A stretch of 64,000 nt of DNA from Flavobacteriales bacterium (lineage in GTDB: Bacteria; Bacteroidota; Bacteroidia; Palsa-965), in the NCBI GenBank assembly GCA_040377305.1, contig JBEIPA010000027.1:1-64000 (forward strand). Direction: 5' to 3'. This document shows positions 40,467 to 58,223 of this stretch, piece by piece. The notes under the pieces are model-generated. The model made no database searches, was not told the DNA's origin, and saw nothing but the letters and a program-made list of their open reading frames with translations. Made by a program: the position numbers and the translations under genes. Each line of letters opens with the position of its first letter. Position 1 is the first letter of the stretch.

Positions 40467-40521
40467 TTTATTTCCTTTTGCGATCAGAACAATCAGTGCT
40501 TTCGCCTGTTGTTTTGATCTG

Positions 40522-40638
40522 TTTCCCTACGCAGGTACTAACCTGATCAGGTGTGCGGTTAACAAGAAATTTTCATCGCTTGTCTCCGCAGGGTATTCTC
40601 TCAGCCCGTCCCGAAAAAAATCGAGAGGGCACCCCTTT
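40522..40638 (-). ncRNA. TPP (thi-box) riboswitch
   Basis: Minus strand GGGGTGC...GGCTGAGA..ATACCC...ACCTGATCAGGTTAGTACCTGCGTAGGGA; TACTTTTG promoter element at 40650-40657. Confidence 0.93.
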
Positions 40639-40713
40639 TTGGATCGCAGCAAAAGTAAAAAAATAATGATGTGATTACTCAACGGTTTGCAGGATGTCCG
40701 ATTTTTCTATCTA

Positions 40714-40769
40714 ATCGGCACATCGGCACATCGGCACATCGGCACATCGGCACATCGGCACATCGGCAC
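40714..40769. repeat. Perfect tandem repeat (ATCGGCAC)x7
   Basis: Seven exact 8-nt units directly after the stop of the NadR-like gene. Confidence 0.95.
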
Positions 40770-40771
40770 GC

Positions 40772-41314
40772 CTAATCGAAATGTCCGAAGTGCTTTCTCA
40801 ACGATGTAATCGCACTCAGCAGTCTTGCCTCATAACGACCAGTCACAATCTCATACGGTAGATTATGACTATCCAGTTCGCGCTTATACCAGTTGAAAAA
40901 GTAATCGCGTCGTTGTGCATTCACCCGAACAGGATCTGCAACCCACGGCAAATCATTCGCAGTGAGTAGATACAAATCATACTTGTGAGATCGAATGTCT
41001 TCTTCAATCCAATCCGGACAATTACCAAAAACATCCAGACACCAAACCTTCGAGATGATCAGTTCCGTATCGACAAACAGAAACTCTGTGGCCGATGATT
41101 CGAGTCGTTTCTCTTGTGCAAGCTGCTCCTTCGAAATCTCTTCAATGTCGTTTATCGTGTATTCGCCGGGATGAACATTCATGTATTCACGAGCATTCTC
41201 CGGTACCCACACCGTCTGAAAACGTAATGCGAGCGAACGTGCAAGCGTAGTTTTCCCTGTGCTCTCTGCACCTAACACTGCAATCTTCTTTATGCCTTCA
41301 GACTTTTTTTCCAT
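40772..41314 (-). CDS. NadR-type AAA/P-loop kinase
   Basis: IAVLGAESTGKT, VPENAREY, FVDT, YDLYLL...PWVADPVR. Confidence 0.88.
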   Translation of the reverse strand: MEKKSEGIKKIAVLGAESTGKTTLARSLALRFQTVWVPENAREYMNVHPGEYTINDIEEISKEQLAQEKRLESSATEFLFVDTELIISKVWCLDVFGNCPDWIEEDIRSHKYDLYLLTANDLPWVADPVRVNAQRRDYFFNWYKRELDSHNLPYEIVTGRYEARLLSAITSLRKHFGHFD

Positions 41315-41913
41315 GAAACGTAGCCAGCCACGGCCATAAAGGTGTAAAAAATAAACAGCACTGCAGCGAGGTACATGGTTGGACCTTTAACCAGGTATAA
41401 AGCTGCACTGCACGCATCAATCACGATCCAGAACAACCAGTTCTCGAGGTATTTTCGTGCGGTCATCCATGTCGCAACCACACTGAAGGATGCAATGAGT
41501 GCATCACTATAAGCAAAAGAATTATCACTGATTGCACTGGAAATAAATCCCAGAATTATTCCGGATACAACGGCTACGCTAACACAAATGAACAGTATGT
41601 TGGATGGCATTCTGGTAATCGAAAGCTCAGCTATACTTTCGTTTCCGTCTGTATTCTTTTTTTCTTTTGACCACGAAATCCATCCGTAAACACCAAGCAC
41701 AACATAGAATATACTAAGGAGCGATTCATACCACAGCCGCTCGTTGAAGTACACACTAACCCACAAGGCAGAACTCACAATTCCAAAACTCCAGCACCAG
41801 ATGTTTTCCTTCAGCGCGAGTACAACATAAACTACTGCAGTAACAGTGGCTATCCACGTGATGACGTCGGTTTCCTGAATACAGTCTACTAAGGCCTCTG
41901 TGAAATTTGACAT
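41290..41913 (-). CDS. pnuC: PnuC-family vitamin (nicotinamide riboside/thiamine) transporter
   Basis: ENIWCW, YGWISW, SVVATWMTARKYLENWLFWIVID. Confidence 0.9.
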   Translation of the reverse strand: MSNFTEALVDCIQETDVITWIATVTAVVYVVLALKENIWCWSFGIVSSALWVSVYFNERLWYESLLSIFYVVLGVYGWISWSKEKKNTDGNESIAELSITRMPSNILFICVSVAVVSGIILGFISSAISDNSFAYSDALIASFSVVATWMTARKYLENWLFWIVIDACSAALYLVKGPTMYLAAVLFIFYTFMAVAGYVSWKKSLKA

Positions 41914-41918
41914 GGTTA

Positions 41919-42548
41919 TTATTCGAATGGAATTGATTGCTCACGACATTTGTCGACGATATTCTTCCATGCCTGCACTGGGGAATCTGAATCCCAAACG
42001 GCACTACCAAACGCAACTCCTGTAAATCCAAGTTCTGCACATTTCGTGATCAAAAGTCCATTGGTACCACCCCGGGCTACAAGCGGCACTGAAGATTTCG
42101 AAGTAGCAGCAAGTACGCTGTGTTCACTATAACCGGCGTGAAATTTACTGCTTAACCTGTCGAAGATGGTGCCGAGAAAAATATATGAAAATTCACTTTT
42201 GTTGGTGTACACGTTCGACAACTTGTGAAAGGATGTGGAAACGGTAAGCGCATCATTTTTCATCTGCAGCATCCGTAAGCGCAGCCACGTAGAAAATTTT
42301 CGGCGACGATGAACAGCAGTAAGATGCACACCGCGAAGCTTGAATTTTGAAGCGAGCTTGTGATGGCTATGAATAACGATACGGTCGTGAAAGTGTTCCG
42401 GAATCTGCTCAATTATTTTGCGCATATCCTGCGTGCTCATCGAAGGCTTGCGGAGGTGAAGTAGATTCAATCCACATTCAAAAAGCTCGGTAATAATCTT
42501 GGGATCTTCCGGTCTGTTTTTCGAAGACGAAATAACGATTAACTTCAT
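41919..42548 (-). CDS. Thiamine phosphate synthase-like (ThiE/TenI family) protein
   Basis: LFECGLNLLHLRKP, RIVIHSH, STSFH, YIFLGTIFD, ARGG, GFTGVAFGSAVW. Confidence 0.8.
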   Translation of the reverse strand: MKLIVISSSKNRPEDPKIITELFECGLNLLHLRKPSMSTQDMRKIIEQIPEHFHDRIVIHSHHKLASKFKLRGVHLTAVHRRRKFSTWLRLRMLQMKNDALTVSTSFHKLSNVYTNKSEFSYIFLGTIFDRLSSKFHAGYSEHSVLAATSKSSVPLVARGGTNGLLITKCAELGFTGVAFGSAVWDSDSPVQAWKNIVDKCREQSIPFE

Positions 42549-43291
42549 TGGGGGTTATGCTTGTTTCGCACAGCTGCAAATTGCGAAAATAATTCGGGAT
42601 TGGCTTCAAATTTATTACCTATCACCGCCACGTCGGCACCCGCTTTGTAACAAGTATCGAGTTGTTCGGGTTCTGTAATGCCTCCCCCGGTAAAAAGTAT
42701 ACAACGCACAGATTGGTTCACCGCAGAAATCATCTCGGCCGGCACAACGTGTTCAGCACCACTGCCTGCTTCCAGATAAATTGCTTTCATTCCCAACTGT
42801 TCACCCGCCAAAGCCGTAGCAGCCGCGAGTTCTGGTTTCGTATTCGGCACGGGCATCGATTGGCTGATATAATGAACAGAAGTTAATCTTCCGCTTTCGA
42901 CCAGGATGTATCCGGTAGGAATAATTTCCAGCCCGGATTGCTTCACTTTCAGCGCTGCTTCCACATGTTTGCCAATCAAAAGATCAGCATTGCGCGAAGA
43001 AATTACAGAGAGCAACAATAGTGCATCAGCTTCTGATACAACCTGGCTCATGTTGCCCGGAAAAAGAACAACCGGAACGCTCAGTGCTGATTTCAGTTTA
43101 TTGACACACTTCGAAACGGAATCATCACCCTGGAAAGAACTTCCTACTAAGAACAGATCCGGTGGATCGTTTTTGCAATGGGCAAGTAGTTGTTCAACTT
43201 GTTCAGTTTTATCGGGATCAACTAACACCGCAAGGCTTTTTAGCTTACGGTTTTTTCGCTCAGTAAAATGGTGAAGAATTTTATGATCCAT
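42545..43291 (-). CDS. Geranylgeranylglyceryl/heptaprenylglyceryl phosphate synthase (GGGPS/PcrB family)
   Basis: VLVDPDK, LVGSS, PVVLFPG, IPTGYILV, YLEAGSGA, GGGI, VIGN; start at ATG 43291 assumed. Confidence 0.9.
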   Translation of the reverse strand: MDHKILHHFTERKNRKLKSLAVLVDPDKTEQVEQLLAHCKNDPPDLFLVGSSFQGDDSVSKCVNKLKSALSVPVVLFPGNMSQVVSEADALLLLSVISSRNADLLIGKHVEAALKVKQSGLEIIPTGYILVESGRLTSVHYISQSMPVPNTKPELAAATALAGEQLGMKAIYLEAGSGAEHVVPAEMISAVNQSVRCILFTGGGITEPEQLDTCYKAGADVAVIGNKFEANPELFSQFAAVRNKHNPQ

Positions 43292-43895
43292 GTGTTGTTT
43301 CGGTCCAGGCAAGCATCATGTCGTTGATGACGCGATACTGAATCGATCTACGTAAAGTTAGTGCTCCATCGGTTAATGCAGCTTCAGCGTTAAACGAAGT
43401 TACGCGGTCTATAAAAATATTACTCTTCATAAACACCGCTTCACTTCCGTAAACCTTGAACATGGCTTCTTTCGCCGTCCAATAGCGAACAAGTTCTTCT
43501 GTTGGTGCAGACTCAATTCGTAAAAGCTCTTCATCATTAAGAAACTTATGCTTCACCTTTTCTACACGCGGATGAATACGTTCAATATCAATTCCACATG
43601 CAACTTCAGATTTCATCATTACAACTGTATTCCCGCAATGTGAAATGGAAACGTGCATTGCAGAATTGGTAACTGGCTTGCCCGTTGATTCATATGTGAG
43701 TTGATCGCCCGGGAATAATTCCGCAAACAACAACTGGGTCACCATGTATTGCTGGTAACGTGTTTCAAGTGTAAAGCTGTTGACCGGATTAATCTTAGAC
43801 AAGCGACAAGCCGATTCAAGCAATATTGTCGACTCTGTGATTGTCCAACACCTTATGTTGCAACCATTCCCCTGGATCAGCTCAATTACAGGCAT
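43281..43895 (-). CDS. 4'-phosphopantetheinyl transferase family protein
   Basis: [21 protein letters not shown]. Confidence 0.88.
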
Positions 43896-43972: not shown

Positions 43973-45292
43973 ATGACCAAGACTGCCGTGGAATCAAAAG
44001 TTCGCTACAAGGTTAAAGATATTTCTCTCGCTGCGTGGGGAAGAAAAGAAATTATGCTGGCTGAGGCCGAAATGCCGGGCTTAATGTCGCTTCGAAAAGA
44101 ATACGGACCGTCACAACCGCTGAAAGGTGCTCGCATCGCAGGTTGTCTGCACATGACAATCCAGACGGCCGTTCTCATCGAGACACTTACTGCTCTGGGT
44201 GCTGAAGTAACGTGGTCATCCTGCAATATTTTCTCGACACAAGATCACGCTGCTGCTGCAATTGCTGCGGCGGGAATTCCGGTTTATGCCTGGAAGGGAA
44301 TGAACAACGAAGAGTTCGACTGGTGTATTGAACAAACACTTTTCGCATTCGAAGGCGACAAGCCATTGAACATGATTCTGGATGATGGTGGTGATTTGAC
44401 CAACATGGTATTCGACAAGTTCCCTGAGCTTGCCAAAGATATCCGTGGCCTCTCTGAAGAAACAACTACAGGTGTTCACCGCCTGTACGAGCGCATGAAA
44501 AACGGAACACTAATGGTTCCCGCAATCAACATCAACGACTCGGTTACAAAGTCCAAATTCGACAACAAATACGGATGCCGCGAATCACTCGTTGATGCAA
44601 TTCGCCGCGCAACAGATCTTATGCTTGCAGGTAAAGTTGCTGTTGTTGCTGGTTATGGCGACGTAGGAAAAGGTTCGGCACAGTCACTCAGCTCACAAGG
44701 CGTGCGTGTGATCGTGACAGAGATCGATCCGATTTGCGCGCTTCAGGCAGCAATGGACGGTTACGAAGTGAAGAAGATGGACGACGCTGTAAAACGCGCA
44801 GACATTATTGTAACTGCAACAGGAAACAAAGACATCGTAACTGAGCGTCACTTCCGTTCTATGAAACACAATGCTGTTGTTTGTAACATCGGTCACTTCG
44901 ATACTGAAATTGACATGGCATGGTTGAATAACAACTACGGTAAGTCGAAAGACGAAATCAAACCACAAGTTGATAAATACACAATTGAAGGAAAAGACAT
45001 TATCGTTCTTGCAGAAGGGCGTCTTGTGAACCTCGGTTGTGCTACCGGCCACCCGTCTTTCGTAATGTCAAATTCGTTCACGAACCAAACACTTGCTCAG
45101 CTTGAATTGTGGACGAACACAAAATCATACGAGAAGAAAGTTTACGTGTTGCCGAAACATCTTGATGAGAAGGTTGCTCACTTACACCTTGCAAAAATTG
45201 GTGTTGAACTTGACATCCTCACTGAAGATCAGGCGAACTATATTGGAGTAAATGTTGCAGGTCCATTCAAACCGGAACTGTACCGCTACTAG
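43973..45292 (+). CDS. ahcY: Adenosylhomocysteinase
   Basis: [47 protein letters not shown]; start moved to ATG 43973 after TAATTTTG. Confidence 0.98.
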
Positions 45293-45316
45293 AATTTCGC
45301 AGGAAATATTTGTGAT

Positions 45317-45345
45317 AAGCCTCGGTAGAAATACCGGGGCTTTTT
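45317..45345 (+). terminator. ahcY terminator
   Basis: aagcctcggta-gaaa-taccggggc-ttttt. Confidence 0.8.
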
Positions 45346-45374
45346 CATGCTTAACATGGTTGTAACAGGAATAG

Positions 45375-45809
45375 CTAATTCACAACCCGGAGCGTTGTCC
45401 CGTCGAACGTATTTACATAAACAGTAACCGGAACAACAGAAGGCCCACCTATTGTCGTGCCATTACTCAATAGAAATTGTGATCCGCACACATCGTCAAC
45501 CAGAACGATATTATTCGAGTCAACTTCGATTTGTGTTCCTGCTTCGCCCGGATGCACGGGACATGCGCGATCGTACACCATGAATTCGCCCTGCGATTTT
45601 CTGAATACGAGTAAACCGTGGTATCCACCGGGAAAATATTTCCACCCTCCAATGGTTGTGAGTGCCATGTTTTGCGGATCATTCACATAAACCGTTAGAT
45701 TCACATACACATACGGCACACCTTGTTGCTCATTTTTGCACCCTGAAATCAGAGCGGAAACGATAAGAGCTGTAATGACTGTGCTGATTTTTCTCAAGGA
45801 AATATTCAA
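45375..45809 (-). CDS. Rieske-like / ferredoxin-subunit lipoprotein
   Basis: Lipobox ISGC; YDRACPVH and CGSQF..NG..GP motifs; start uncertain (TTG 45809 assumed). Confidence 0.7.
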   Translation of the reverse strand: MNISLRKISTVITALIVSALISGCKNEQQGVPYVYVNLTVYVNDPQNMALTTIGGWKYFPGGYHGLLVFRKSQGEFMVYDRACPVHPGEAGTQIEVDSNNIVLVDDVCGSQFLLSNGTTIGGPSVVPVTVYVNTFDGTTLRVVN

Positions 45810-45881
45810 TGTCGTGCGATGATAGGTTAACAAATTTACGAAATGCACTTTTTGCGGCACTGTTTTCGTTATAAGTTTGTA

Positions 45882-46223
45882 ATGATGTTGTATTGGAGAA
45901 AAATAGTGATGTTAATGCTAGTTCTGGTTTTCACCGGAATGGGTGATGTATACGCTCAAGACGGAGGAAATTCAAATGGTGGCTCCGGAACCGGCACCGA
46001 ACAAGAACCTACAGGTAGAGCTGCTCGCCGTAAAGCTAAGCGCGACTGGAAGAAACAGCGCAAAACCGAAATGGAGACTGAGCAGTCTAAGAAGGACTAC
46101 AATAAGAAGCACAATACGAAGAAGACACGCAAGAGAATGAAGAGGGCAGAGAAGGAAGCGAACCGAAACAATTCCCACAAGAGGGAATTCTTCCTCAAAC
46201 GTTGGTTCAAGAAGCGGAAATAG
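45882..46223 (+). CDS. Small secreted, highly basic hypothetical protein
   Basis: Signal peptide ending VYA-Q; Gly-rich linker; K/R-rich helix ending FFLKRWFKKRK; TAAGTTTG immediately upstream. Confidence 0.65.
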   Translation: MMLYWRKIVMLMLVLVFTGMGDVYAQDGGNSNGGSGTGTEQEPTGRAARRKAKRDWKKQRKTEMETEQSKKDYNKKHNTKKTRKRMKRAEKEANRNNSHKREFFLKRWFKKRK

Positions 46224-46652
46224 CTGCCACTTATCTGCGCGAGTCGACCACCTATTAGATTTTATGCGTTTTCCTGCGATTTTAACGCACAATCATTGTT
46301 TTTACCGATAAGGTTTCGTTAAGTTTGTATAACGTTCTTTAACGGGTCAAACTCCCGAACCTGCCCGGTTTTATTACCGGAAATCCTGGCGCTTTTTGTC
46401 AGGTCGAAACACCATTTCACTGGTTTGTTTTGTGCTCCGCTCCAACGTCCCCTCGGTAGCGGGTTGAAATCTGGAAGTATCTGTAAATTAGTTAGTTATA
46501 GTTGATGTCTTTTGACATTTCTCAGACATTTTTGTGCCGTCTGGAAGTGTCAATTATTGTTAATAGTTTATTTGTTGGACAGAAATAAAACTATCTATAT
46601 TTACCGACTTCAAACGCACGACCAATTTTATTTTAACACAAACAGAATCATT

Positions 46653-49600
46653 ATGCTGCGAAAAATTTACGTTGCAATCTTATTGCTGCTTGTTACTACC
46701 GTTGTAGTAAAAGCGCAAGGCGAGATTAAGGGGCAAGTCGTAGATAAGTCAACACGCGAGGGTATTCCTTTCGCTGTAGTTACTTGTTCTAAAGGTGGAG
46801 TTAACGCCGGAGGAACGACGACAGATTTGGATGGAAACTTTACGATCAAGCCGTTGGGCGCCGGTACGTACACTATCAAGGTACAGTACACAGGTTACCA
46901 GACTACGGAAGTACAGAACGTAATTGTTTCGGAAGGGAAAACAACTTACTTCACTACAACTCCGATCGAGCTGAATCCAACTTCAGTTCAGATCAACGAA
47001 GTTGTAATCGTGAGCTACAAAGAGCCACTCATTGACCCGGATACAAAATCGGGCGGTACAGTGACTCGTGAAGAGTTCCTCGCGATGCCATCTAAAAACA
47101 TCAATTCAGTTGCTGCGACAACTGCTGGTGTTTATCAGTCGGATGAAGGTGAGGGAATCCAGATGCGTGGTCAGCGTGATGCAGGTACAGCGTACTTCAT
47201 CGACGGTCAGCGTGTAATTGGTTCAGCTGGACTTCCACAACAATCAATCGAACAAGTAAGCGTAATCACTGGTGGTGTTCCTGCACAATTCGGTGACGCG
47301 ATGGGTGGTGTTGTAAACATCACTACACGTGGACCACAGAGCCAGTACTTCGGCGGTGTCGAGCTTATCTCTTCGGAGATTCTTGATTCTTACGGATACA
47401 ACTTCGTTGGATTCAGCGTAGGTGGCCCGATCTGGATGAAGCCTGACTCAGTTTATGGAAAGAAGCCTGTTCTTGGTTTCATTCTCTCTGGTGAGGGTGT
47501 TGTAGAAGACGATCCGGATCCATCTGCAATCGGAACTTACAAAGTAAAACAAGACAAGCTTTATGAACTCGAAGCAAATCCGCTTCGTCCGGCTCCAAAC
47601 GGATCTGGTTTCGTACGTAACTCTGAGTATGTTACTATGGACGACCTCGAGCCAATTAAAGCACGTCAGAATGTAGCATCAAAAGCATTGCGTCTCAACT
47701 TGAAAATCGATTTCAAACCAACCGATAACCTGAACTTTACATTCGGTGGTTCTATGGATTACGGTTCCAAGCACAATTACATTTACGAGTACGCAATGTT
47801 CAACCCGGTTAACAACCCGCAGATCAACACGAATACATGGCGTGTTTATGCGCGTGTTACGCAACGTTTCGGCGCTACAAGTGCTGATGAGAATGCAACG
47901 TCTAACATCAAAAACGCGTTCTACACTTTGCAGGTTGGTTATACCTCATATAAGGAGACTACGCAAGACGATACGCACAAAGAGAATCACTTCAGCTATG
48001 GTCACGTTGGTACGTTCAACCAGTATAAGAGCCGTGTACTTGTTCCCGGACAAACAGTTTATCAGGGTGACACGGTACTTGGATTTGTACAGGCAGCGTT
48101 CGCTGACTCAGCAATCACTTACTCTCCTTTCTATACTGATGCTAACGGAAACATCATCACTGCAAACCCGTTGATGTCGAACTACACTACTTATGTGTTC
48201 AACAACCTCGGTACTTATTCAAATCCTGACGGTAGCTCTGATATTACTGGAGATGAGATGTACTCTATGACTGGTAACTCGGATCTTATCCTGGCTAACC
48301 TCGGTTTGCCAAATGGTTACCGTCCAACAGACGTTTACTCTTTGTGGTATAACACAGGACGTCAATACGGTGGTTATGCAATCGACGACAAGACTCAGTT
48401 CCGCGTTTTCACCAGCTTCTCTGCTGACATCAAGAACCACGCGATCCAGGTTGGTTTCGAATTCGAGCAGCGTACAGAGCGTGGTTACAACATGTCGTCA
48501 CTCGGTCTTTGGACTCGTATGCGCCAGTTGGCTAACTACCACCTTACGCAGCTTGACGTAAACAATCCAACTCAAGTTGACTTCGGAACATTCGATGCTT
48601 ATTATTTCGAGCGTTATGTTGATACAACTCAACAGCGTTGGTTTGACCACGAAATGCGCGAAGCTCTCGGCATGAATCCTTACGGTAGCGAATGGATCGA
48701 CGTTGATGCTTATTCACCTGACTTCTACAGTCTGGATATGTTCTCTCCGGATGACCTTCTTCTGGATGGTAATAACATGGTGAGCTACTTCGGTTACGAC
48801 CACACTGGTAAGCGTACTTCTGGTAAAGAATCTTTCGATGATTTCTTTACTGCGAAAGACGGTAACGGAAATTTCACACGTGGTATACCTGCATTCCGTC
48901 CTATCTACATGGCGGGTTACATCCAGGATAAATTTGACTTCAAAGACATCAAGTTCAACGTGGGTGTTCGTATCGACCGTTTCGATGCTAACCAGCCGGT
49001 GTTGAAGAACAGGTATTTGTTCTATGAAGCAAAAACTGTAGCTGAAGCAACAGACTTTACACACCCTGAGAACATGGGCAACGATTACGTTGTATATGTA
49101 AACGACGCACAAAACCCAACTGAAGTTGTAGGTTACATGAACGACGGAACCTGGTTTGATGCGGACGGTAACGAGATTGCTGACCCGGGCGTAATTGCTC
49201 AGCAAACAAACACAGGTCGTATCACGCCTTACCTCGTTGATCCTAATGAAACCCAAGTAACTTCTAAGGCTTTCAAAGATTACGAGCCTCAGTTGATTTT
49301 CATGCCACGTATCGCGTTCGCGTTCCCTATTTCTGAAGAAGCAAACTTCTTCGCTCACTACGATGTACTTACACAGCGTCCTACAAGCGGTTACCGTTTG
49401 GATCCGTTGCAGTACTACTACATCGAGAACCGTGTTGGTTTGTTCAACAACAACCCTGACCTGAAGCCACAGCGCACCACAGATTACGAGCTTGGATTCA
49501 CACAGACTTTGAACGAACGTAAGAATGCAGCACTTACACTTTCTGCTTTCTACCGTGAGATGCGTAACCTTATTCAGGTTGTATCTGTGAACTATGCTTA

Positions 49601-50378
49601 CCCGGTTAACTACCTTACTTATGGTAACATTGACTTCGGTACAGTAAAAGGATTCACAGTTGCTTATGACCTTCGCCGTACTGGTGGTGTTCAGTTGACA
49701 GCTTCTTATACTCTTCAGTTCGCTGATGGTACAGGATCTGGTGCTACTGAAGCAGCTAACCTCGTTTCTAATGGTCAGCCTAACCTTCGTACAACAGTTC
49801 CTCTGGATTTCGATCAGCGCCATGCAATCGTTTGTAACATTGACTACCGTTTCGGTTCAGGTTCAAATTACAACGGACCAGTATGGACTTCTAAGTCTGG
49901 TAAAGAAATCAAGTGGTTGGATAACGTAGGTGCTAACATGGTTATCCGTGCTGGTTCTGGTACTCCTTACACTCGTCAGTCGAACGTAACTCCTGAAGCA
50001 CAGTTTGGTGTTCAGAAGCGTCAGGTTCTTGACGGATCTGTAAACGGTTCACGTTTGCCTTGGCAGGTTCGTGCTGACCTTCGTGTTGACAAGAACGTTG
50101 ATCTTTCATGGGGAACTGGCGACAACAAGAAAGCTGCTAACCTCAACATCTACCTTCAGGTTCTTAACGTGTTGAACACGAAAAACATTCAGAACGTTTA
50201 CCGTTACACTGGAAACCCTGATGACGATGGTTACTTGTATGCTGCACAAACTCAGAACTCAATTGCTGGTTCTAACAGCGAGCAGTCATTCCGCGACCTT
50301 TACACAATCAAAGTGAATAACCCATCGAACTACAGCATCCCTCGCCGTATTCGTATTGGTGTAATGCTTGACTTTTAA
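46653..50378 (+). CDS. Very large TonB-dependent receptor (about 1240 aa) with carboxypeptidase-regulatory-like N-domain
   Basis: Start moved to ATG 46653; plug (MRGQR...YFIDG...VITGGVPAQFGDAMGGVVNITT); barrel NPDLKPQRTTDYELG; ends PRRIRIGVMLDF. Confidence 0.88.
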   Translation: MLRKIYVAILLLLVTTVVVKAQGEIKGQVVDKSTREGIPFAVVTCSKGGVNAGGTTTDLDGNFTIKPLGAGTYTIKVQYTGYQTTEVQNVIVSEGKTTYFTTTPIELNPTSVQINEVVIVSYKEPLIDPDTKSGGTVTREEFLAMPSKNINSVAATTAGVYQSDEGEGIQMRGQRDAGTAYFIDGQRVIGSAGLPQQSIEQVSVITGGVPAQFGDAMGGVVNITTRGPQSQYFGGVELISSEILDSYGYNFVGFSVGGPIWMKPDSVYGKKPVLGFILSGEGVVEDDPDPSAIGTYKVKQDKLYELEANPLRPAPNGSGFVRNSEYVTMDDLEPIKARQNVASKALRLNLKIDFKPTDNLNFTFGGSMDYGSKHNYIYEYAMFNPVNNPQINTNTWRVYARVTQRFGATSADENATSNIKNAFYTLQVGYTSYKETTQDDTHKENHFSYGHVGTFNQYKSRVLVPGQTVYQGDTVLGFVQAAFADSAITYSPFYTDANGNIITANPLMSNYTTYVFNNLGTYSNPDGSSDITGDEMYSMTGNSDLILANLGLPNGYRPTDVYSLWYNTGRQYGGYAIDDKTQFRVFTSFSADIKNHAIQVGFEFEQRTERGYNMSSLGLWTRMRQLANYHLTQLDVNNPTQVDFGTFDAYYFERYVDTTQQRWFDHEMREALGMNPYGSEWIDVDAYSPDFYSLDMFSPDDLLLDGNNMVSYFGYDHTGKRTSGKESFDDFFTAKDGNGNFTRGIPAFRPIYMAGYIQDKFDFKDIKFNVGVRIDRFDANQPVLKNRYLFYEAKTVAEATDFTHPENMGNDYVVYVNDAQNPTEVVGYMNDGTWFDADGNEIADPGVIAQQTNTGRITPYLVDPNETQVTSKAFKDYEPQLIFMPRIAFAFPISEEANFFAHYDVLTQRPTSGYRLDPLQYYYIENRVGLFNNNPDLKPQRTTDYELGFTQTLNERKNAALTLSAFYREMRNLIQVVSVNYAYPVNYLTYGNIDFGTVKGFTVAYDLRRTGGVQLTASYTLQFADGTGSGATEAANLVSNGQPNLRTTVPLDFDQRHAIVCNIDYRFGSGSNYNGPVWTSKSGKEIKWLDNVGANMVIRAGSGTPYTRQSNVTPEAQFGVQKRQVLDGSVNGSRLPWQVRADLRVDKNVDLSWGTGDNKKAANLNIYLQVLNVLNTKNIQNVYRYTGNPDDDGYLYAAQTQNSIAGSNSEQSFRDLYTIKVNNPSNYSIPRRIRIGVMLDF

Positions 50379-50429
50379 AAGCACCGCGTGATTTCCAAAT
50401 ACAAAAAACAAGGAAGTAGAAACATTTAA

Positions 50430-53400
50430 ATGAATGCAACAATGAAAATCACTCGTAAAATATTTCTCCCTGCATTTGCAATTCTTGCCTTCACGGCAAC
50501 GGCAGATGCACGAGAGAACGGGGCTCTTGGCAATCGCGTTTCCAATGGAAACCGATACCAGTCTGGTGAAGATGTAGCGGCAACTTGTACGCCTGCTGCA
50601 GCTAAAACCGACCTCGACGTAAACAACGTTCGCACCACAATTATGACTGGTGGCGATATGTGGTGGGATTTGACCACTGCTCGCTATGAGATTCCAAAAG
50701 GTGGTGATGCTCACTCAATCTTCGCTGGTGCTCTTTGGATCGGCGGACTTGACGCGGGTGGATCACTGAAGGTTGCTGGTATGACTTATCGTCAAACTGG
50801 TAATGACTTCTGGCCAGGTCCGCTTGATACACTTGCAGTTTCTATCGAAGGTGCTGTGTGTAACGAGTTTGACCGCCACTGGAAAATCACGCGTAAAGAA
50901 GTTGATGACTTCGTTGCGTGGACTCAGTCTCCATCAAGTTTCCCGACCTACTCGGTACCAAACGTAATTCAGTCGTGGCCGGGGAACGGTAATGCTTCTG
51001 ATGGACAAGGTCGTTACCTTGCTCCGTTTGTTGACGTTGACGGTGATGGATACTACAACTATCAGGCAGGTGACTATCCTGGATATGACGTAACCGGCTC
51101 TATGGGCTGTACGCGTTTCCAGCTTTTCGGTGACCAGACTTTGTGGTGGGTATTTAATGACAAAGGAAACGTTCACTCGGAAACAGGTGCTGCTTCTATC
51201 GGTCTTGAAATTCACGCTCAGGCGTTCGGATTTACAACGAACGATGAGATCAATAACATGACGTTCTACTCTTACAAAATCATCAACCGTTCAACTGTAC
51301 AGATGAACGACACATACTTCGGTCAGTGGACAGACGCTGACTTGGGTGATGCTTTTGATGACTATGTTGGTTGCGACGTTGCACGTGGACTTGGTTATAC
51401 TTACAATGGTGATGCGAATGACGGTGCTACAGCACAGGCTGGCGCTGGTACTTATGGAGCTAATCCTCCTGCTGTTGGTATGGACTTCTTTGAAGGACCA
51501 ATTGCTGATACTGGTGACTTAATCGACAATAACCGCAACGGAGTTACTGACGAGCCGGGTGAGCAAATCATCATGTCTAAGTTCGTATACTACGATAACA
51601 ACTTTACTGTAACTGGTAACCCGGAGAATGCAACTCACTTCTACAACTACCTTGGTGGTTTCTGGAAAGATGGTTCGCCACTCACCTACGGTGGAACAGC
51701 TTACGGCGGAACTACAGTTTCTGACTTCATGTTCCCTGGTGATACTGACCCGCTCGGTTGGGGAACAAACTTCGTACCTCAAGCATATTGGGATGAAGTA
51801 GCTTCAGGAAACTTACCGAATGACCGTCGTATGCTTCAGTCTGCTGGACCATTCACATTGCAGCCGGGTGCTATTAACTACATCACCGTTGGTGCAGTTT
51901 GGGCGCGCGCAGGTAATGGTGGACCAACAGCTTCTGTAGCATTGTTGCGTACTACTGATGACAAAGCACAACGTCTATTCAACAACTGTTTCCGTACACT
52001 TGACGGACCTACAGCTCCGGATTTAACTATTCAGGAATTGGATAAAGAGGTAACTATTTACCTGACTAACAAAGAAGGTACAAATAACTACCTCGAGCGT
52101 TACGAAGCATACGATCCAGCGATCGTTTACACTACGCTTCACCCTGCACTTCAGAACATTGACACTACTTTCAATTTCGAAGGTTATCAATTGTTCCAGT
52201 TGAAGGACATCACGGTTACAACTGCTGATTTGTACAACCCTGACAAGGCGCGTATGATTGGTCAGTGCGATGTACAAAATGGAGTTGCACAACTTGTGAA
52301 TAGCGAATTCGATCAGTCACTTGGAACTGACGTTCCTCAAGACATGACGATTGATGCAGGTGATGACGGAATCGTTCACTCTTTCTCTGTGAAGACAGAC
52401 GCATTTGCAACGGGCGACAACCGCCTGATCAACCACAAGACTTACTATTTCCTTGTGATTGCATACGCGCACAACCGTTACCTGACTTATGATGATGTAT
52501 CGTTTGACACGCTTCAGCCTACAACTCCTTCTAACATTGGTCAGAAGAAACCATATCTGGCAGGTCGTAAGAACGTAAGAGTTTACTCTGCAATTCCACA
52601 CATCACTTCTCCTGAAGCGGGTGGAACTGATCAGCCGGCAAATTACGGTTCAGGTCCTAAGCTTACTCGTATCGAGGGTTCTGGAAATGGAACGAACATT
52701 GTTGAATTAACACAGGCATCAGAAGATGCAATTGTTGCAGCTGTACCTGTTCACAACGGAGGCACTGCGCGTGTAGATCAGATTCAGTATGAAGGCGGAT
52801 ATGGTCCGGTGAATATTAAAGTAATCGACCCGCTTAACGTACCTGAAGGTGATTTCACAATTCAGTTGCTGAACAATCCTTCTGCACAAATTACTGTAGT
52901 TGGAACTGCAACTTGGTTGATGAATCAAACGAGTGGTGTTGGTTCACCGCGTTCATGGGCTGCTGATACTTCTATCAATTTCCAGTCGGTATACGCGAAC
53001 GAACAGATCATTCCTGAAATCGGAATGTCGGTTACATGGAGCCAGACTCAGAACCCGGGTTATGGAAACAATCCTGACCGTAACGGTTACCTTGCTTCTT
53101 CTATGACTTTCGATGATCCTACAAAAGACTTCCTTACAGGAATTGTAGATCAGGATGGCAATGACGAGTACAACTGGATTCGCGGTGGATCACAAACCGG
53201 TACTGGAGTTTGCGTAGCAGACTTTAATGACCGTCACAATGGTCTTAACCCGATTGATCCGGAGGGTGACTATGAGAAACTGGTTAACGGAATCTGGGGA
53301 CCTTACCGTATTACGTCTTACAACCCGTATCCGAATCAGGCAACGGTATGTTATCCTGCTGGTCCGGCTTGGTTCCCAAGTCCTCCATCTGCAACAGTTG

Positions 53401-54545
53401 CAAACCGTTTCGAAAACATCTCAAACGTTAACATCGTAATCACTAACGATCGTTCTAAGTGGACGCGTTGTCCGGTACTTGAAGTAGGTCCTACACACTT
53501 GCTCAATGAAGGTCAGCGTGAACCTTTCCACCTGCGTGATCATGCTTCGGTTGACCAATACGGTCGCACTGGAGACGGTGTTGTATCAAATGATCCTAAC
53601 GACGCAGATTACATTGGTGCTAACGGCATGGGCTGGTTCCCGGGTTACGCAATTAACCTTGAAACCGGAGAGCGTCTGAACATGGCTTTTGGAGAGAACT
53701 CAGCTCTTGCTGCTGATAATGGCCGCGATATGTTGTTCAATCCGAATTCACGTGATCAGGTCAACGGTAACACGATCTGGGGCGGTATGCACTTCGTGTA
53801 CGTATTCGGTCACAATGGTAACACGCGCTTTACTACTGGCGTACTCACCAATGAACTGAAAGACGTTCCTGCTTATGATGCGGGTACAGCTATCTACAAG
53901 ATTCTGAATGCTGACGCTACGGCAAACGCTGAGCTTCGTGAAGTTTATTCAGATGCTATGTGGACAAGCATTCCGGTGCTGACAAGTGATTTTGACAATC
54001 ACACATGGGGTAACAACTATGCAGGTTCGGATGTAATTCCTTCGACTTGTAAGATCCGTCTGCGCGTTGCAAAACCATACAAACGTTTCTTCAATGGTAT
54101 CACAACAGCATCGGGTGTCATGGCATCTGACTCTGCAGCGAATCCGGTGAACACGAATAATCCGATGTATGCGTTCAACACTGCAGATCTGAAGACTTCA
54201 ACTGATCACGCCCTTTCTGCACAGGAAGCATTGGAAATAATTAACGTTGTTCCGAACCCTTACTATGCATACTCTGGATACGAAACGAACCAGTTCGATA
54301 ACCGCGTGAAGTTCACGAACCTCCCTGAAAAGTGCGAGATCAAGATCTACACGGTTAACGGTACACTCGTTCGCAGGTTCACGAAGGATTCACCTCAAAC
54401 TTCCCTCGACTGGGATCTGAAGAATCAGGCCGGCATCCCTGTGGCTAGTGGTCTTTACATCATCCACGTTAATGTTGAAGGAGTAGGAGAGAAAATCCTG
54501 AAGTGGTTTGGCGTAATGCGTCCGATTGACCTCGATTCGTATTAA
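50430..54545 (+). CDS. Large T9SS C-terminal target domain protein (1371 aa)
   Basis: Signal peptide; LDVNNVR...IFAGALWIGG N-domain; Ca-binding-like DVDGDG and DNNRNGVTDE motifs; CTD VVPNPY...FTNLP...IYTVNG...WDL...VASGLYIIHV. Confidence 0.85.
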   Translation: MNATMKITRKIFLPAFAILAFTATADARENGALGNRVSNGNRYQSGEDVAATCTPAAAKTDLDVNNVRTTIMTGGDMWWDLTTARYEIPKGGDAHSIFAGALWIGGLDAGGSLKVAGMTYRQTGNDFWPGPLDTLAVSIEGAVCNEFDRHWKITRKEVDDFVAWTQSPSSFPTYSVPNVIQSWPGNGNASDGQGRYLAPFVDVDGDGYYNYQAGDYPGYDVTGSMGCTRFQLFGDQTLWWVFNDKGNVHSETGAASIGLEIHAQAFGFTTNDEINNMTFYSYKIINRSTVQMNDTYFGQWTDADLGDAFDDYVGCDVARGLGYTYNGDANDGATAQAGAGTYGANPPAVGMDFFEGPIADTGDLIDNNRNGVTDEPGEQIIMSKFVYYDNNFTVTGNPENATHFYNYLGGFWKDGSPLTYGGTAYGGTTVSDFMFPGDTDPLGWGTNFVPQAYWDEVASGNLPNDRRMLQSAGPFTLQPGAINYITVGAVWARAGNGGPTASVALLRTTDDKAQRLFNNCFRTLDGPTAPDLTIQELDKEVTIYLTNKEGTNNYLERYEAYDPAIVYTTLHPALQNIDTTFNFEGYQLFQLKDITVTTADLYNPDKARMIGQCDVQNGVAQLVNSEFDQSLGTDVPQDMTIDAGDDGIVHSFSVKTDAFATGDNRLINHKTYYFLVIAYAHNRYLTYDDVSFDTLQPTTPSNIGQKKPYLAGRKNVRVYSAIPHITSPEAGGTDQPANYGSGPKLTRIEGSGNGTNIVELTQASEDAIVAAVPVHNGGTARVDQIQYEGGYGPVNIKVIDPLNVPEGDFTIQLLNNPSAQITVVGTATWLMNQTSGVGSPRSWAADTSINFQSVYANEQIIPEIGMSVTWSQTQNPGYGNNPDRNGYLASSMTFDDPTKDFLTGIVDQDGNDEYNWIRGGSQTGTGVCVADFNDRHNGLNPIDPEGDYEKLVNGIWGPYRITSYNPYPNQATVCYPAGPAWFPSPPSATVANRFENISNVNIVITNDRSKWTRCPVLEVGPTHLLNEGQREPFHLRDHASVDQYGRTGDGVVSNDPNDADYIGANGMGWFPGYAINLETGERLNMAFGENSALAADNGRDMLFNPNSRDQVNGNTIWGGMHFVYVFGHNGNTRFTTGVLTNELKDVPAYDAGTAIYKILNADATANAELREVYSDAMWTSIPVLTSDFDNHTWGNNYAGSDVIPSTCKIRLRVAKPYKRFFNGITTASGVMASDSAANPVNTNNPMYAFNTADLKTSTDHALSAQEALEIINVVPNPYYAYSGYETNQFDNRVKFTNLPEKCEIKIYTVNGTLVRRFTKDSPQTSLDWDLKNQAGIPVASGLYIIHVNVEGVGEKILKWFGVMRPIDLDSY

Positions 54546-54588
54546 CCAAAAAGGATCCATGAATTTTCAATTCAATTAGCACGATACT

Positions 54589-55662
54589 ATGAAAACAACA
54601 TATAAAATAGCTGCAGCGTTCATCACGGCATCAATGATTGCCGGATCAACAGGTACTGCGATCGCTGGTAACGGAGACCGTGCAGGTCAGGCCGGAGCCA
54701 CCGAGTTGTTGATCAATCCTTATGCGCGCAGCTCAGGATGGGGAGGAGCTAACGCTGCTTCTATTCGCGGACTGGAGGCAATGTACATGAACGTTGCTGG
54801 TACCGCATTCACAAAGCGTACAGAGCTCATGTTCTGCCACACCAACTGGTTAGGCGGAACAGGAATCGGAATCAACGCGTTCGGATTTACGCAACGCGTG
54901 GGTGAAACAGGAGCAATTGGTTTGGGTGTAATGTCAATGGATTTCGGCGACATCCAGATCACTACTGTGGATCTTCCGGAAGGCGGAATCGGAACTTATC
55001 ATCCGACTTATACGAACATCGGGTTGTCGTATGCGAAAGGTTTCTCTGAGAACATTTATGGCGGTATCGTTATAAAAGCAATCTCTGAATCGATCGCTGA
55101 CGTTGCAGCACGCGGAGTCTGCCTCGATGCAGGCATCCAGTACGTAACGGGTAAAATGGAACAGGTACACTTTGGAATCTCTCTCCGTAACGTAGGACCG
55201 CGTATGCGTTTCTCTGGTGACGGTTTGTCGTTCCGTGGTACTTCACCAACAGGTGCATATGCGATGACACTCGAACAGCGTACAGCTGATTTCGATATGC
55301 CAACGCTGATTAACATCTCTGGTGCATACGATTTCTATTTTGCTAAAGACAGCACGAACCGTAAGAACCACCGTGTTACAATGGCAGGGACATTCACTTC
55401 AAACTCTTTCTCTAAAGATGAGTTCCGTGTAGGTGTTGAGTACGCTTGGCGTTCTATGCTCATGATTCGTGGAGGTTATACCTACGAGGAAGGAATTTCA
55501 AAAGTGGAGACACGTACAACGGCATTTACAGGCCCGAATGCAGGTCTTTCATTAGAGCTTCCTTTTGGCAAAAAAGGTTCAACTTTCGCAGTAGACTATT
55601 CTTATCGTTTTACGAACCCATTTACGGGGGTTCACAGCTTCGGAGCGCGTCTGAACCTCTGA
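54589..55662 (+). CDS. PorV/PorQ family outer-membrane beta-barrel
   Basis: Signal peptide; ELLINPYARSSGWGGA N-terminal PorV-family motif; amphipathic strands; GVEY, RGGY, VDYSY. Confidence 0.85.
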   Translation: MKTTYKIAAAFITASMIAGSTGTAIAGNGDRAGQAGATELLINPYARSSGWGGANAASIRGLEAMYMNVAGTAFTKRTELMFCHTNWLGGTGIGINAFGFTQRVGETGAIGLGVMSMDFGDIQITTVDLPEGGIGTYHPTYTNIGLSYAKGFSENIYGGIVIKAISESIADVAARGVCLDAGIQYVTGKMEQVHFGISLRNVGPRMRFSGDGLSFRGTSPTGAYAMTLEQRTADFDMPTLINISGAYDFYFAKDSTNRKNHRVTMAGTFTSNSFSKDEFRVGVEYAWRSMLMIRGGYTYEEGISKVETRTTAFTGPNAGLSLELPFGKKGSTFAVDYSYRFTNPFTGVHSFGARLNL

Positions 55663-55701
55663 TCCTGACCTAAGGGATTTTTTTACTACATTTGAATTAA
55701 C

Positions 55702-55749
55702 AGGAGAGTCCCTGTCTGCTTCGGCAGACAGGGATTCTCCTTCTGTTTT
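55702..55749 (+). terminator. Strong hairpin (operon terminator and/or greA leader attenuator)
   Basis: aggagagtccctgtctgc-ttcg-gcagacagggattctcct followed by tctgtttt. Confidence 0.65.
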
Positions 55750-55775
55750 AAGTCACAACACCAAACACGCCTAAA

Positions 55776-56249
55776 ATGTCACAGATCGTCTATTTTACCG
55801 AAGAAGGGCTCCAGAAGCTGAAGGATGAGCTGCATTTCCTGAAAACGAAGGAAAGGCCATCTATTTCGCGGCAAATTGCGGAAGCAAGGGACAAGGGAGA
55901 TTTGTCGGAAAACGCTGAATACGACGCCGCAAAAGAGGCTCAGGGCTTACTTGAACTGAAGATATCTAAGATGGAAGGTACACTGAGCAATGCCCGTATT
56001 GTCGACCAGTCTCAGCTTGATACATCCAAAGTGCTCATTTTGTCTAAAGTCACTATCAAAAACGTGAAAACCGGGCAAAAAATGAGCTATACATTGGTGC
56101 CTGAAAACGAAGCCGACCTGAAGTCAGGCAAGCTCTCGATTACATCCCCAATTGCAAAAGGACTGCTTGGCTGCGAGAAAGGCGACAAGACGGAAGTGAC
56201 AGTTCCAAGCGGTAAGATGACTTTCGAAATCATCGAGATCAGCAGGTAA
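55776..56249 (+). CDS. greA: Transcription elongation factor GreA
   Basis: EARDKGDLSENAEYDAAKE, SPIAKGLLG. Confidence 0.97.
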   Translation: MSQIVYFTEEGLQKLKDELHFLKTKERPSISRQIAEARDKGDLSENAEYDAAKEAQGLLELKISKMEGTLSNARIVDQSQLDTSKVLILSKVTIKNVKTGQKMSYTLVPENEADLKSGKLSITSPIAKGLLGCEKGDKTEVTVPSGKMTFEIIEISR

Positions 56250-56644
56250 TGGCGAGCATCTTTTCGAAAATTGTTGCCGGCGAAATCCCGTGTTATAAAA
56301 TTGCCGAAACAGAAAACTGTCTGGCATTTCTGGATGTTTCACCTCTTGTGCACGGACATGTACTCGTGATTCCGAAAAAGGAAATCGACTACATTTTTGA
56401 TCTCGGAGATGACCAGTTCAGCGAACTGCATTTATTCGCGAAGAAAATAGCGAAGGCAATCGGTAAAGCAATTCCGTGTAAGCGGGTTGGTATTGCGGTT
56501 ATCGGACTTGAAGTTCCGCATGCCCACATTCACCTGGTGCCGATGAATACGATTGGTGATATAACATTCACGAGAGAGAAATTGAAACCAACTTCTGAGG
56601 AACTGGAGCGTGTTGCGGAAAAAATTCGCGCAGCGCTTGCATAA
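56249..56644 (+). CDS. HIT family protein
   Basis: SIFSKIVAGEIP, GHVLVIPK, VPHAHIHLVP. Confidence 0.95.
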   Translation: MASIFSKIVAGEIPCYKIAETENCLAFLDVSPLVHGHVLVIPKKEIDYIFDLGDDQFSELHLFAKKIAKAIGKAIPCKRVGIAVIGLEVPHAHIHLVPMNTIGDITFTREKLKPTSEELERVAEKIRAALA

Positions 56645-56676
56645 ACCTTAAAGGTTTTAAAAACCTTTAAGGTTTA
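56642..56676. repeat. Perfect 17-bp inverted repeat spanning two convergent stop codons
   Basis: taaaccttaaaggtttt-a-aaaacctttaaggttta; each arm is itself near-palindromic. Confidence 0.85.
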
Positions 56677-57263
56677 GAGCGACGCTTCACTTCACGTTCG
56701 GGATTTCCGCTCAGAAAGGTTTCCCAGCTCCCATATTTTTTATCGGTAGTTCCCGGAGTTTTCATCTGGAAAAAATGGCACACGGCAGCTGCAAGTCCAT
56801 CGGTTGCATCGAGATATTTCGGCATGTCCTTTATCCCGAGCAGTTGCTGCAACATTTTCGCAACCTGTTCTTTAGAGGCGTTTCCGTTGCCGGTAATCGA
56901 CATCTTTATTTTTTTCGGACTGTATTCGTGAACCGGAATATCACGATTTAATGCCGCGGCCAGAGCCACGCCTTGTGCACGTCCAAGCTTGAGCATTGAT
57001 TGTACATTCTTTCCGAAGAACGGAGCTTCAACGGCAAACTCATCGGGCAAATGTTTCGTGGCTAACTCGGTAGTTGTTTCGAAAATCTTTTTGAGCTTGA
57101 GCGCGTGGTTCTCGAGTTTGTCGAGTTTGATTACGCCAAGATCAATCAGTTCCATTTTTTGTCCACGGCAAATAATCACACCGAATCCCATGATGTTGGT
57201 TCCAGGATCGATTCCGAGAATGATTTTCTCTTTTTGCGTGGCAGTTCTTTTCAGTGCGTTCAC
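56667..57263 (-). CDS. ruvC: Crossover junction endodeoxyribonuclease RuvC
   Basis: [40 protein letters not shown]. Confidence 0.96.
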
Positions 57264-57296
57264 AGTGTCTTTTGCTACATTTACTGAACCGGCGTA

Positions 57297-58223
57297 ATGG
57301 AGAATTCCAATCGTATTCTTGTTGGCAGAGTTTTAAAGGTAGCAATAGTTTTGGTCGCTGCCGTGCTGTTGTATTTCGCGATGCATAAGTTCTTCAGCAA
57401 TCACGAAGCGCGCGCTTTTCTCACCGTGATTTGGCTGGAGTCGTGGCACGTACTGCTTATTGTGCTTGTACTGGTGCCATTTAATTGGTTCCTGGAAACA
57501 GCGAAATGGAAAAGGCTCATTTCTGCTTCTGAAAAAATTTCATGGGTTGAAGCCTGGAGCGCAGTTCTCGCCGGACTCGCAATTGGTTCAGCAACACCAA
57601 ACCGTGTAGGAGAGTTTGCCGGAAGAATCTTTCAGTTGAAGTCAACTCCTTTACGCGATGGAATTGTTTTCACTTTCGTAAGCTCTATCATGCAGGTTGC
57701 GGTTACGGTCGTATTCGGGGTGCTTGGCTTGCTGATGACTGATCCTGATAAATATCTGCACAGCGGAAAAGCATTTATATGGACAGTGGTTGTTGTTGGA
57801 GCAGGGTGCGCCTTGATCGCTTACGCAAAAACTGCCCGCGGAAAAATCGGAGAATATCTTTCGGCGCTCAAGAAAATAGACGGCAATATTCTTGGGGTTG
57901 TATTCGGATTATCTGCCCTACGTTATTGCGTTTATTCGCTGCAGTTCTATCTCATGCTTCGCTTGTGCGGAATTGAATCGGGTGGTATGGAATTGTTTTG
58001 GGCAATCGCGGTAAACTATCTTGCAGTTACCATCATACCTTCCGTCATGTTTACAGAAATGATTGTACGCGGAGCGGTTGCAACAGGTGTAATCGGTGGT
58101 CTATGCGGAAATCCAGGAGCAGCAGCTGGAGCAGCCGTTATACTGTGGCTCATTAATGTAGGTGTTCCCGCGGTGATCGGATTGTTTTTCGTGAAAAACA
58201 TTTCATTCTTCAGGAGGCGATGA
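57297..58223 (+). CDS. Lysylphosphatidylglycerol synthase TM-domain (flippase-like) membrane protein
   Basis: Multi-TM; [25 protein letters not shown] motifs. Confidence 0.8.

Follow-up and report, generated by a model that had tools for sequence, protein, structure and literature searches.

A conserved trio of TonB-dependent transporter, secreted-type protein and PorV-like barrel in Bacteroidota, apparently undescribed and probably a SusD-free importer

In a 64,000-nt stretch of DNA from a Flavobacteriales bacterium (contig JBEIPA010000027.1, assembly GCA_040377305.1; hereafter the window), three neighboring genes at 46653-55662 encode a large TonB-dependent transporter, a secreted-type protein and an outer-membrane barrel, which we call R, C and V. 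R-C-V is a real, conserved outer-membrane module and, apparently, an undescribed one. It is SusCD-like in its presumed working and PorZ-PorQ-like in its C-V pair, and it is neither of the two. We consider it probable, if well short of certain, that the trio is a SusD-free importer in which a capture partner, C, is exported by the T9SS (type IX secretion system), held at the surface by its own barrel, V, and takes the place of the SusD lipoprotein. The three genes are:

46653-50378, + strand: R, TonB-dependent transporter, 1241 aa.
50430-54545, + strand: C, secreted-type protein, 1371 aa, about 150 kDa.
54589-55662, + strand: V, outer-membrane barrel of the PorV/PorQ family, 357 aa.

The original prediction, made from the DNA alone, described three co-oriented genes with gaps of 51 nt (R to C) and 43 nt (C to V) and a strong hairpin at the end, all of which the coordinates and a hairpin scan bear out. 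We start R at the methionine of an MLRK motif, the start in most relatives; the open reading frame (ORF) tool opens it earlier, at a TTG at 46512. Starting from an alignment of V, with 557 relatives among the first 600 pattern matches, we fetched the best 80 GTDB loci. The order R-C-V is present in 48/48 of the Bacteroidia loci that extend at least 9 kb upstream, and the proposed check on conservation of the triplet thus came out in its favor. Thirteen of the remaining 32 loci, all shorter, show all three genes, and the other 19 are cut by a contig end or have a gene missed by the ORF caller. In Bacteroidia the trio is usually followed by greA. An even draw of 201 genomes across the phylum included 49 Bacteroidia, ten of which have an orthologue of V, in one copy each; the subfamily that includes the window copy, which we call core, is single-copy in the Bacteroidia sampled, and R and V are each single-copy in their own genome.

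R has the predicted build of a TonB-dependent transporter, a plug inside a 22-stranded barrel. A signal peptide comes first, and Pfam and the structural model together place after it a CarboxypepD_reg-like domain (residues 25-119), the plug (136-220) and the barrel (233-1240), whose 22 strands were counted from DSSP and the sequence. All top rows of a Foldseek search with the AlphaFold model of residues 120-1241 (pLDDT 91, pTM 0.87) are TonB-dependent transporters; PF07715 scores over its cut-off and PF00593 slightly under (26.1 vs 27). A TonB-box-like EVVIVS, judged by eye against the consensus, precedes the plug at residues 116-121. We rejected a count of 24 strands, because strands 454-470 and 473-491 pair up within loop 4 as a hairpin that is without counterpart in shorter relatives. 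As predicted, R is much longer than the other two receptors in the window (810 and 788 aa). Its extra length sits mostly in three enlarged loops, which are mostly 25-100 aa long in the shorter relatives from other classes and which the model's topology places on the extracellular side:

47967-49289, + strand: three enlarged loops of R, residues 439-573, 616-750 and 779-879 (135, 135 and 101 aa), from model and topology.

R is not SusC/RagA, as TIGR04056 reaches 57 bits over positions 2-207 only, against a cut-off of 368.25. The genome (5.18 Mb, 99.99% complete) holds no TIGR04056 match over cut-off, and neither the locus nor the genome holds a match to the SusD models PF07980, PF14322 or PF12771; the SusC and SusD control searches were each positive in Bacteroides thetaiotaomicron. 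The module had been described as lacking SusD, and this extends to the whole genome. SprA (2611 bits, contig C49) and PorV (501 bits, contig C11) are there, so both the T9SS translocon and its PorV are encoded. The codon choice of the trio had been likened by eye to that of pnp and atpD and taken as a hint of high expression. By codon adaptation index (CAI), which measures codon bias rather than expression and was referenced to 25 ribosomal-cluster and elongation-factor genes, R, C and V rank 5, 24 and 70 among the 1954 genes of at least 300 aa, next to atpD (18) and a pnp-like gene (20); at the level of codon usage, the guess holds.

C begins with a signal peptide, assigned by eye, and has no cysteine within its first 40 residues and hence no lipoprotein cysteine. 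No Pfam family scores over its cut-off, no enzyme family matches, and the only matches are weak ones of the tail to PorZ, TIGR04183 and FlgD_ig; a single-sequence search of solved structures found no match for C or V. The AlphaFold model of residues 45-1240 (pLDDT 89, pTM 0.77), the comparison of relatives and the profile matches divide the protein as follows:

50562-52004, + strand: N-terminal domain of C, residues 45-525, predicted galactose-mutarotase-like beta-supersandwich with a linker helix.
52020-52601, + strand: middle beta-sandwich region of C, residues about 531-724, from the model and the comparison of relatives.
52650-54149, + strand: third region of C, residues 741-1240, mostly confined to Bacteroidia-type members.
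54213-54542, + strand: tail of C, PorZ-like T9SS C-terminal domain (CTD), residues about 1262-1363, plus an 8-residue extension, from profile matches.

The N-terminal domain aligns best with residues 158-463 of the dextran dextrinase 9ju0 (VIA-align Z 19.1, root-mean-square deviation (rmsd) 3.1, 250 residues aligned), and rows 2-5 of the search, within 2 Z, are supersandwich domains of glycoside hydrolase (GH) families GH94 and GH15; Foldseek gave E 7e-5. The domain thus resembles the non-catalytic ones at the N-terminus of GH15, GH94 and GH116 enzymes. C could nonetheless be an enzyme at the surface, cutting a polymer and passing the product to R, with an active site in the supersandwich or in the third region. 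Seven acidic residues of the N-terminal domain are invariant in the alignment columns (D244, E260, D302, D304, D311, D331 and D465), the fold also matches catalytic supersandwiches, for example GH174 (Z 13.2, rmsd 3.6, 234 aligned), and region 741-1240 is without an assigned fold, the fold-search rows mostly spanning model residues 9-555 and barely covering it. Yet the best fold matches (Z 17-19) are to non-catalytic domains, and no catalytic (alpha/alpha)6 barrel follows the supersandwich: the matches span the supersandwich and linker, and the model of residues 45-1240 has scattered short helices only. Together with the lack of an enzyme family match, and with the same domain type accompanying starch, beta-glucan, xylan and peptide loci alike (see below), this makes an enzymatic C very unlikely. 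The shared supersandwich, as modeled, by itself shows no function. The middle region, whose strand pattern suggests a fibronectin-III-like fold, is shared by every trio-type cargo examined; orphan C paralogues with a canonical CTD lack it.

The tail of C carries the VVPNPY...WDL...ASGLY signature just as first described. It matches the PorZ model NF052228 at E 1.3e-9 over residues 1262-1348 (37 bits against a full-length cut-off of 260, tail only), and a profile search matched it to residues 660-757 of the PorZ structure 5m11 (E 1.7e-4); the type A models give 21.3 bits (TIGR04183, cut-off 23) and 14.5 bits (PF18962, cut-off 27). The 8-residue extension is without counterpart in the cargos of paralogous trios and ends in an aromatic residue, as F or Y closes the sequence of 105 of the 119 relatives aligned. 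Near the end stands a nearly invariant lysine, and type A CTDs carry such a lysine according to the available text of PMC10994853. C had also been credited with several calcium-binding-like DxDxDG motifs; one strict copy (D202) stands, and the rest, with only a looser DNNRNG at residue 366, was overstated.

V scores over the cut-off of the PorV/PorQ family model NF033709 (138 bits vs 90), and its profile matches the PorV structure 6h3i (E 2e-11). It falls below the equivalog cut-offs for PorV (56 vs 250), PorQ (64 vs 220) and PorV2 (48.5 vs 325). In a quick tree, in which the positions of PorQ-like and PorV2-like rows are unsure, the window V groups with Bacteroidia in a clade of 16 rows (SH-aLRT 99), which is nested in a core group of 43 rows; paralogue-type V proteins, PorV and the genome's own PorV and PorQ-like proteins fall elsewhere. 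Judged by sequence, V is a subfamily of its own within the PorV/PorQ family. The PorV score, the tree and a true PorV at C11:123911 (501 bits) rule out V as a canonical PorV, and it is therefore not the genome's sole copy, which would have spoken against the original prediction. V is also unlikely to be BamG, a subunit of the barrel assembly machinery (BAM), because the PDB profile search returned PorV and no BAM chain. On contig C11, 123911-127886 holds three genes in tandem that score 501, 328 and 320 bits, all of them over the PorV equivalog cut-off; they follow a 1295-aa gene, which from position and size we take to be porU. PorQ-like and PorV2-like genes, labeled by resemblance only, lie elsewhere in the genome.

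Beyond Bacteroidia, V-family matches occur in 101 of the 151 sampled genomes of other classes, often several per genome, and in 0/39 genomes of one family, f29. The loci of the best of these matches are again R-C-V, and both R (930-1130 aa) and C (1000-1280 aa) are shorter there. We then examined 40 further loci from 10 genomes, chosen by their paralogues of V. R-C-V follows directly in 31, five have one gene masked by the ORF caller, and four show a variant order, a 590-700-aa CTD protein and two other genes followed by R-V; at one additional locus (L032), only a V of the variant-order subfamily was seen. A cargo profile built without the paralogue loci scores their full-size cargos at 110-202 bits across the N-terminal, middle and tail regions, and because of these matches we regard them and the window C as one family.

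The three genes are inherited together as a cassette. Identities computed pair by pair for R, C and V correlate at 0.81, and the same nearest neighbor is found for 40-44 of 57 trios overall (R and C, 44; R and V, 41); of the 38 trios that come from multi-copy genomes, only 2 have their nearest R within the same genome. SusCD pairs likewise move as matched sets. Such co-inheritance across paralogues, together with the position of R upstream of C in every full-length locus, argues against the view that C serves as an adhesin or surface coat, displayed on V like type B cargos on PorP/SprF, while R imports independently of it. That view would account for the size of C, its multi-domain beta build and its acidic, calcium-type motifs, and for the orphan C paralogues with canonical CTDs that exist without R or V; all in all we find it quite unlikely.

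The surroundings of the paralogous trios point to nutrient uptake. In Pfam scans of 146 of their 224 flanking ORFs of at least 270 aa, 19 of the 40 loci have domains of a glycoside hydrolase or of a carbohydrate-binding module (CBM), specifically GH2, 3, 10, 13, 16, 31, 94 and 106, glycoamylase, GHL10, CBM9 and CBM20. The scans also found LacI-type regulators (7/40), peptidases or amidases (8/40), SurA-like isomerases (7/40) and sodium:solute symporters (2/40), and listed no SusD family for any of the 146 proteins. Matched trio subfamilies come with matched enzymes, for example GH2 in L154, L163 and L189 and glycoamylase in L160, L168 and L183, and the type of N-terminal domain seen in C accompanies starch, beta-glucan, xylan and peptide loci alike. 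Because relatives sit among sugar- and peptide-degrading enzymes, the trio likely does the nutrient-capture job of SusC/SusD. The original prediction of SusCD-independent uptake gains support from these clusters, which resemble polysaccharide utilization loci (PULs), and from a genome free of SusC and SusD; uptake itself is what we infer from them. In the seven loci with a SurA-like peptidyl-prolyl isomerase, its gene is mostly directly upstream of R, and the protein is perhaps a dedicated chaperone.

The window copy shares the architecture of the paralogous trios, not their enzyme context. Among 61 neighbors of core-type loci we found no glycoside hydrolase (11 are serA-like dehydrogenases and a few are peptidases or response regulators), so the PUL-like context belongs to the paralogues only, and no carbohydrate-active enzymes lie beside the window trio. 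One could take the core-type trio for an accessory machine of the envelope or the T9SS, similar to PorF, of which only paralogues were recruited for feeding. It is single-copy, has a very high CAI, is fixed before greA in Bacteroidia, often follows a serA-like gene and is without catabolic neighbors, and a PorF-like TonB receptor of Cytophaga hutchinsonii co-purified with PorV (available text of PMC8564354). The T9SS, however, does not need V, as 39 of the 49 sampled Bacteroidia have SprA and no orthologue of V, and the same architecture is found in catabolic loci; an accessory role is in our view unlikely. The serA-like gene, for a 2-hydroxyacid dehydrogenase, is found in 11 loci across classes, one or two genes upstream of a core-type R, a deep synteny. 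In two loci from different Bacteroidia families, a LytTR response regulator and a sensor-like gene stand directly upstream of R, an arrangement absent from the window.

As an importer, the trio would work as follows. R and V would be inserted in the outer membrane, and C would cross it through SprA. The tail of C would be passed to, or carried by, V and stay uncleaved, as for PorZ on PorQ; cognate PorV-like barrels have been proposed to protect CTDs from cleavage in this way (review, PMC10202324, as far as available). The tethered C would then lie over R, contact its loops, bind substrate and hand it to the TonB-energized channel of R for import. Synteny, co-inheritance and homology are what suggest both the docking of C on V and its role as a lid or capture partner. 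A complex prediction for a compact relative (receptor barrel 226-820 with the N-terminal domain, 46-396, of the cargo of L191) scored 0.00 against a mark of 0.32 and counts neither way. The genome is poor in glycosidases and rich in proteases (0 GH2, 1 GH3 and 9 S8 protease matches), which makes peptides or protein fragments the likeliest substrate of the window copy; if the import model holds, this guess, made from genome content only, comes close to an even chance without quite reaching it.

The presumed dependence on SprA also bears on the opposite direction of transport, in which R would be an exporter like Oar of Myxococcus that secretes C, V then anchoring it, as a self-contained secretion module. 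R and C are always encoded together, and protein secretion can require a TonB-dependent transporter (PMC6434023, available text). But C has a T9SS-type tail, a plugged barrel of 22 strands would leave little room for a multi-domain protein of 150 kDa to pass, and no V-bearing genome among the 201 is without SprA, which occurs in 162 genomes, including 112/112 with V. The 39 genomes without SprA are those of f29, and none has a V match. We regard export by R as highly improbable. Chlorobiota lack both SprA and SusCD according to the available text of PMC12611786, and f29 would be Chlorobiota.

Trio and SusD counts tend to be inverse. Among 27 relatives (G012 was left out, and G029 and G030 were scored in the phylum sample instead), PF07980 matched in two. 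For the ten Bacteroidia genomes that have V, the median number of SusD matches listed is 2, as compared with 8 for the 39 that do not; in family f36 it is 2 in 25 genomes with V-family matches and 7 in eight without. All 13 genomes of families f28, f39 and f41 have V matches, and none has SusD.

Several observations weigh against a SusD-free importer. Two genomes have both systems, G019 (trio and 17 SusD matches) and G170 (trio and 11), SusD counts near 11 being read as at least that many, and two others, G021 (99% complete) and G024 (91%), yielded neither a SusD match nor an orthologue of V; related genomes are not independent. Because SprA is in nearly every genome outside f29, the co-occurrence of V and SprA comes down to one lineage. 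The CTD of C scores just below the type A cut-offs. The 19 enzyme-bearing loci of 40 are a raw count without a random-locus baseline, and the subfamily of the window copy offers no hint of a substrate, the PUL context belonging to paralogues of 24-29% identity. SusD-free TonB transporters in other phyla work without a lid (see also PMC13543919).

Known systems share parts of this design. Like SusC/SusD (RagA/RagB), the trio pairs a large TonB transporter with an N-terminal CarboxypepD-like domain and a dedicated surface-partner gene after it, and its paralogues form multi-copy matched sets beside glycosidases, peptidases and LacI regulators. Unlike SusC/SusD, R is not SusC, and C is neither a lipoprotein nor of the SusD family; the C-type partner has 830-1400 aa, is mostly beta, has a tail of T9SS type and is accompanied by a barrel gene of its own. 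As in PorZ-PorQ and PorU-PorV of Porphyromonas gingivalis, a cargo with a PorZ-like CTD goes with a cognate PorV-family barrel presumed to hold the uncleaved tail. Here, however, C matches PorZ in the tail only and has no peptidase C25 match, V is below the PorV and PorQ cut-offs, and a transporter gene is linked to the C-V pair. Type B T9SS cargos such as SprB-SprF have one barrel gene per cargo gene, which anchors the cargo after export (PMC10994853 and PMC10202324, available text). The trio likewise has one V per C, but the tail of C is type A- or PorZ-like and V is of the PorV/PorQ family, not PorP. To our knowledge, the SprB-SprF arrangement includes no TonB transporter.

A possible counterpart is a xylan locus of Rhodothermus marinus, Rmar_1070-1072, which Table 1 of PMC6987092 gives as a TonB receptor, a Por-CTD hypothetical and a hypothetical, followed by a second CTD protein and a GH10 enzyme; the available text of that paper assigns the three genes no role and names no PorV-like barrel. 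The order matches that of our locus L180 (R, C, V, a 909-aa protein and GH10), and by gene order Rmar_1070-1072 would be a trio of the R-C-V family. Our literature search, with supplements and subscription journals outside its scope, found no description of the trio, so an earlier one is possible.

More speculatively, and with rather more doubt than confidence, we propose that the trio is the original lidded importer of Bacteroidota and sister phyla. The T9SS would build the lid, the private PorV-like barrel would be the hinge, and each paralogous trio would serve one substrate class, with SusC/SusD later displacing the trio in Bacteroides, Flavobacterium and kin; in a lineage free of SusCD, the window copy would be the dominant importer of the outer membrane, with orphan paralogues as swappable lids. 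Outside the phylum the range comes from a few labels, KSB1 and Ignavibacteriales on V-family matches and a Fidelibacterota-labeled Atlas cluster at 0.93 for the N-terminal domain of C. SusC/SusD is regarded as the defining feature of polymer-feeding Bacteroidota, and the prediction of PULs relies on it. One survey reports susCD as scarce in the carbohydrate-active enzyme clusters of Ignavibacteriales and absent from those of Kapabacteria (PMC10576277, available text), and many of the environmental Bacteroidia sampled here are without SusCD. If the trio is an importer, the R-C-V signature marks importer loci in SusCD-poor genomes and fills this gap in PUL prediction, the T9SS gains a new role in assembling nutrient importers, and the tail of C with V is a new class of tail-barrel pairing.

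The genome encodes three orphan paralogues of C (CAI ranks 448, 868 and 1299). The one at C10:151161-155264 is full-length, 78% identical and has the same unusual tail, with no R or V nearby; it could be an exchangeable capture subunit for the single R and single V. Elsewhere, extra copies of C sit directly after V in two loci (L023 and L042). The two shorter orphans, at C10:69293-72703 and C50:108409-110112, carry the N-terminal domain with or without the third region, one being without the middle region and the other having the N-terminal domain only, and both end in canonical-looking T9SS tails. Such forms recur across the genus, and by sequence the supersandwich appears to be a mobile module.

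Two candidate signals flank the trio:

46320-46327, + strand: candidate Bacteroidota-type -7 box TAAGTTTG, about 330 nt before the start of R.
55702-55741, + strand: intrinsic terminator-like hairpin between V and greA, 18 pairs and a T-rich tail.

Of the 12 terminator-like sites within 45000-57500, the hairpin exceeds all others in length by a wide margin; greA, on its 3' side, was identified by Pfam. The Bacteroidota -7 consensus is TAnnTTTG; 31 of 63 upstream regions contain the motif, compared with 13 expected from shuffles, at variable distances, and it is thus a weak candidate. A sigma-70 promoter scan stayed at chance level (13 vs 15.7), and Rfam matched nothing within 45800-56000. Two small genes upstream of R are kept in the genus, a lipoprotein-like one at 45375-45860 (- strand) and one at 45843-46223 (+ strand) for a very basic protein with a signal peptide; neither has an NCBIfam family, and the basic protein has no Pfam family over cut-off. 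Farther upstream, 38034-43895 (- strand) holds the 810-aa TonB receptor and then further ORFs, which by eye we take to be a NadR-type ATPase, a PnuC-like transporter, and thiamine-phosphate-synthase-like and geranylgeranylglyceryl-phosphate-synthase-like proteins. At the other end of the window, the gene at 61578-63977 (- strand), presumably for a membrane pyrophosphatase-like protein, has a Cys/His-rich C-terminal tail and ranks 8 of 1954 by CAI.

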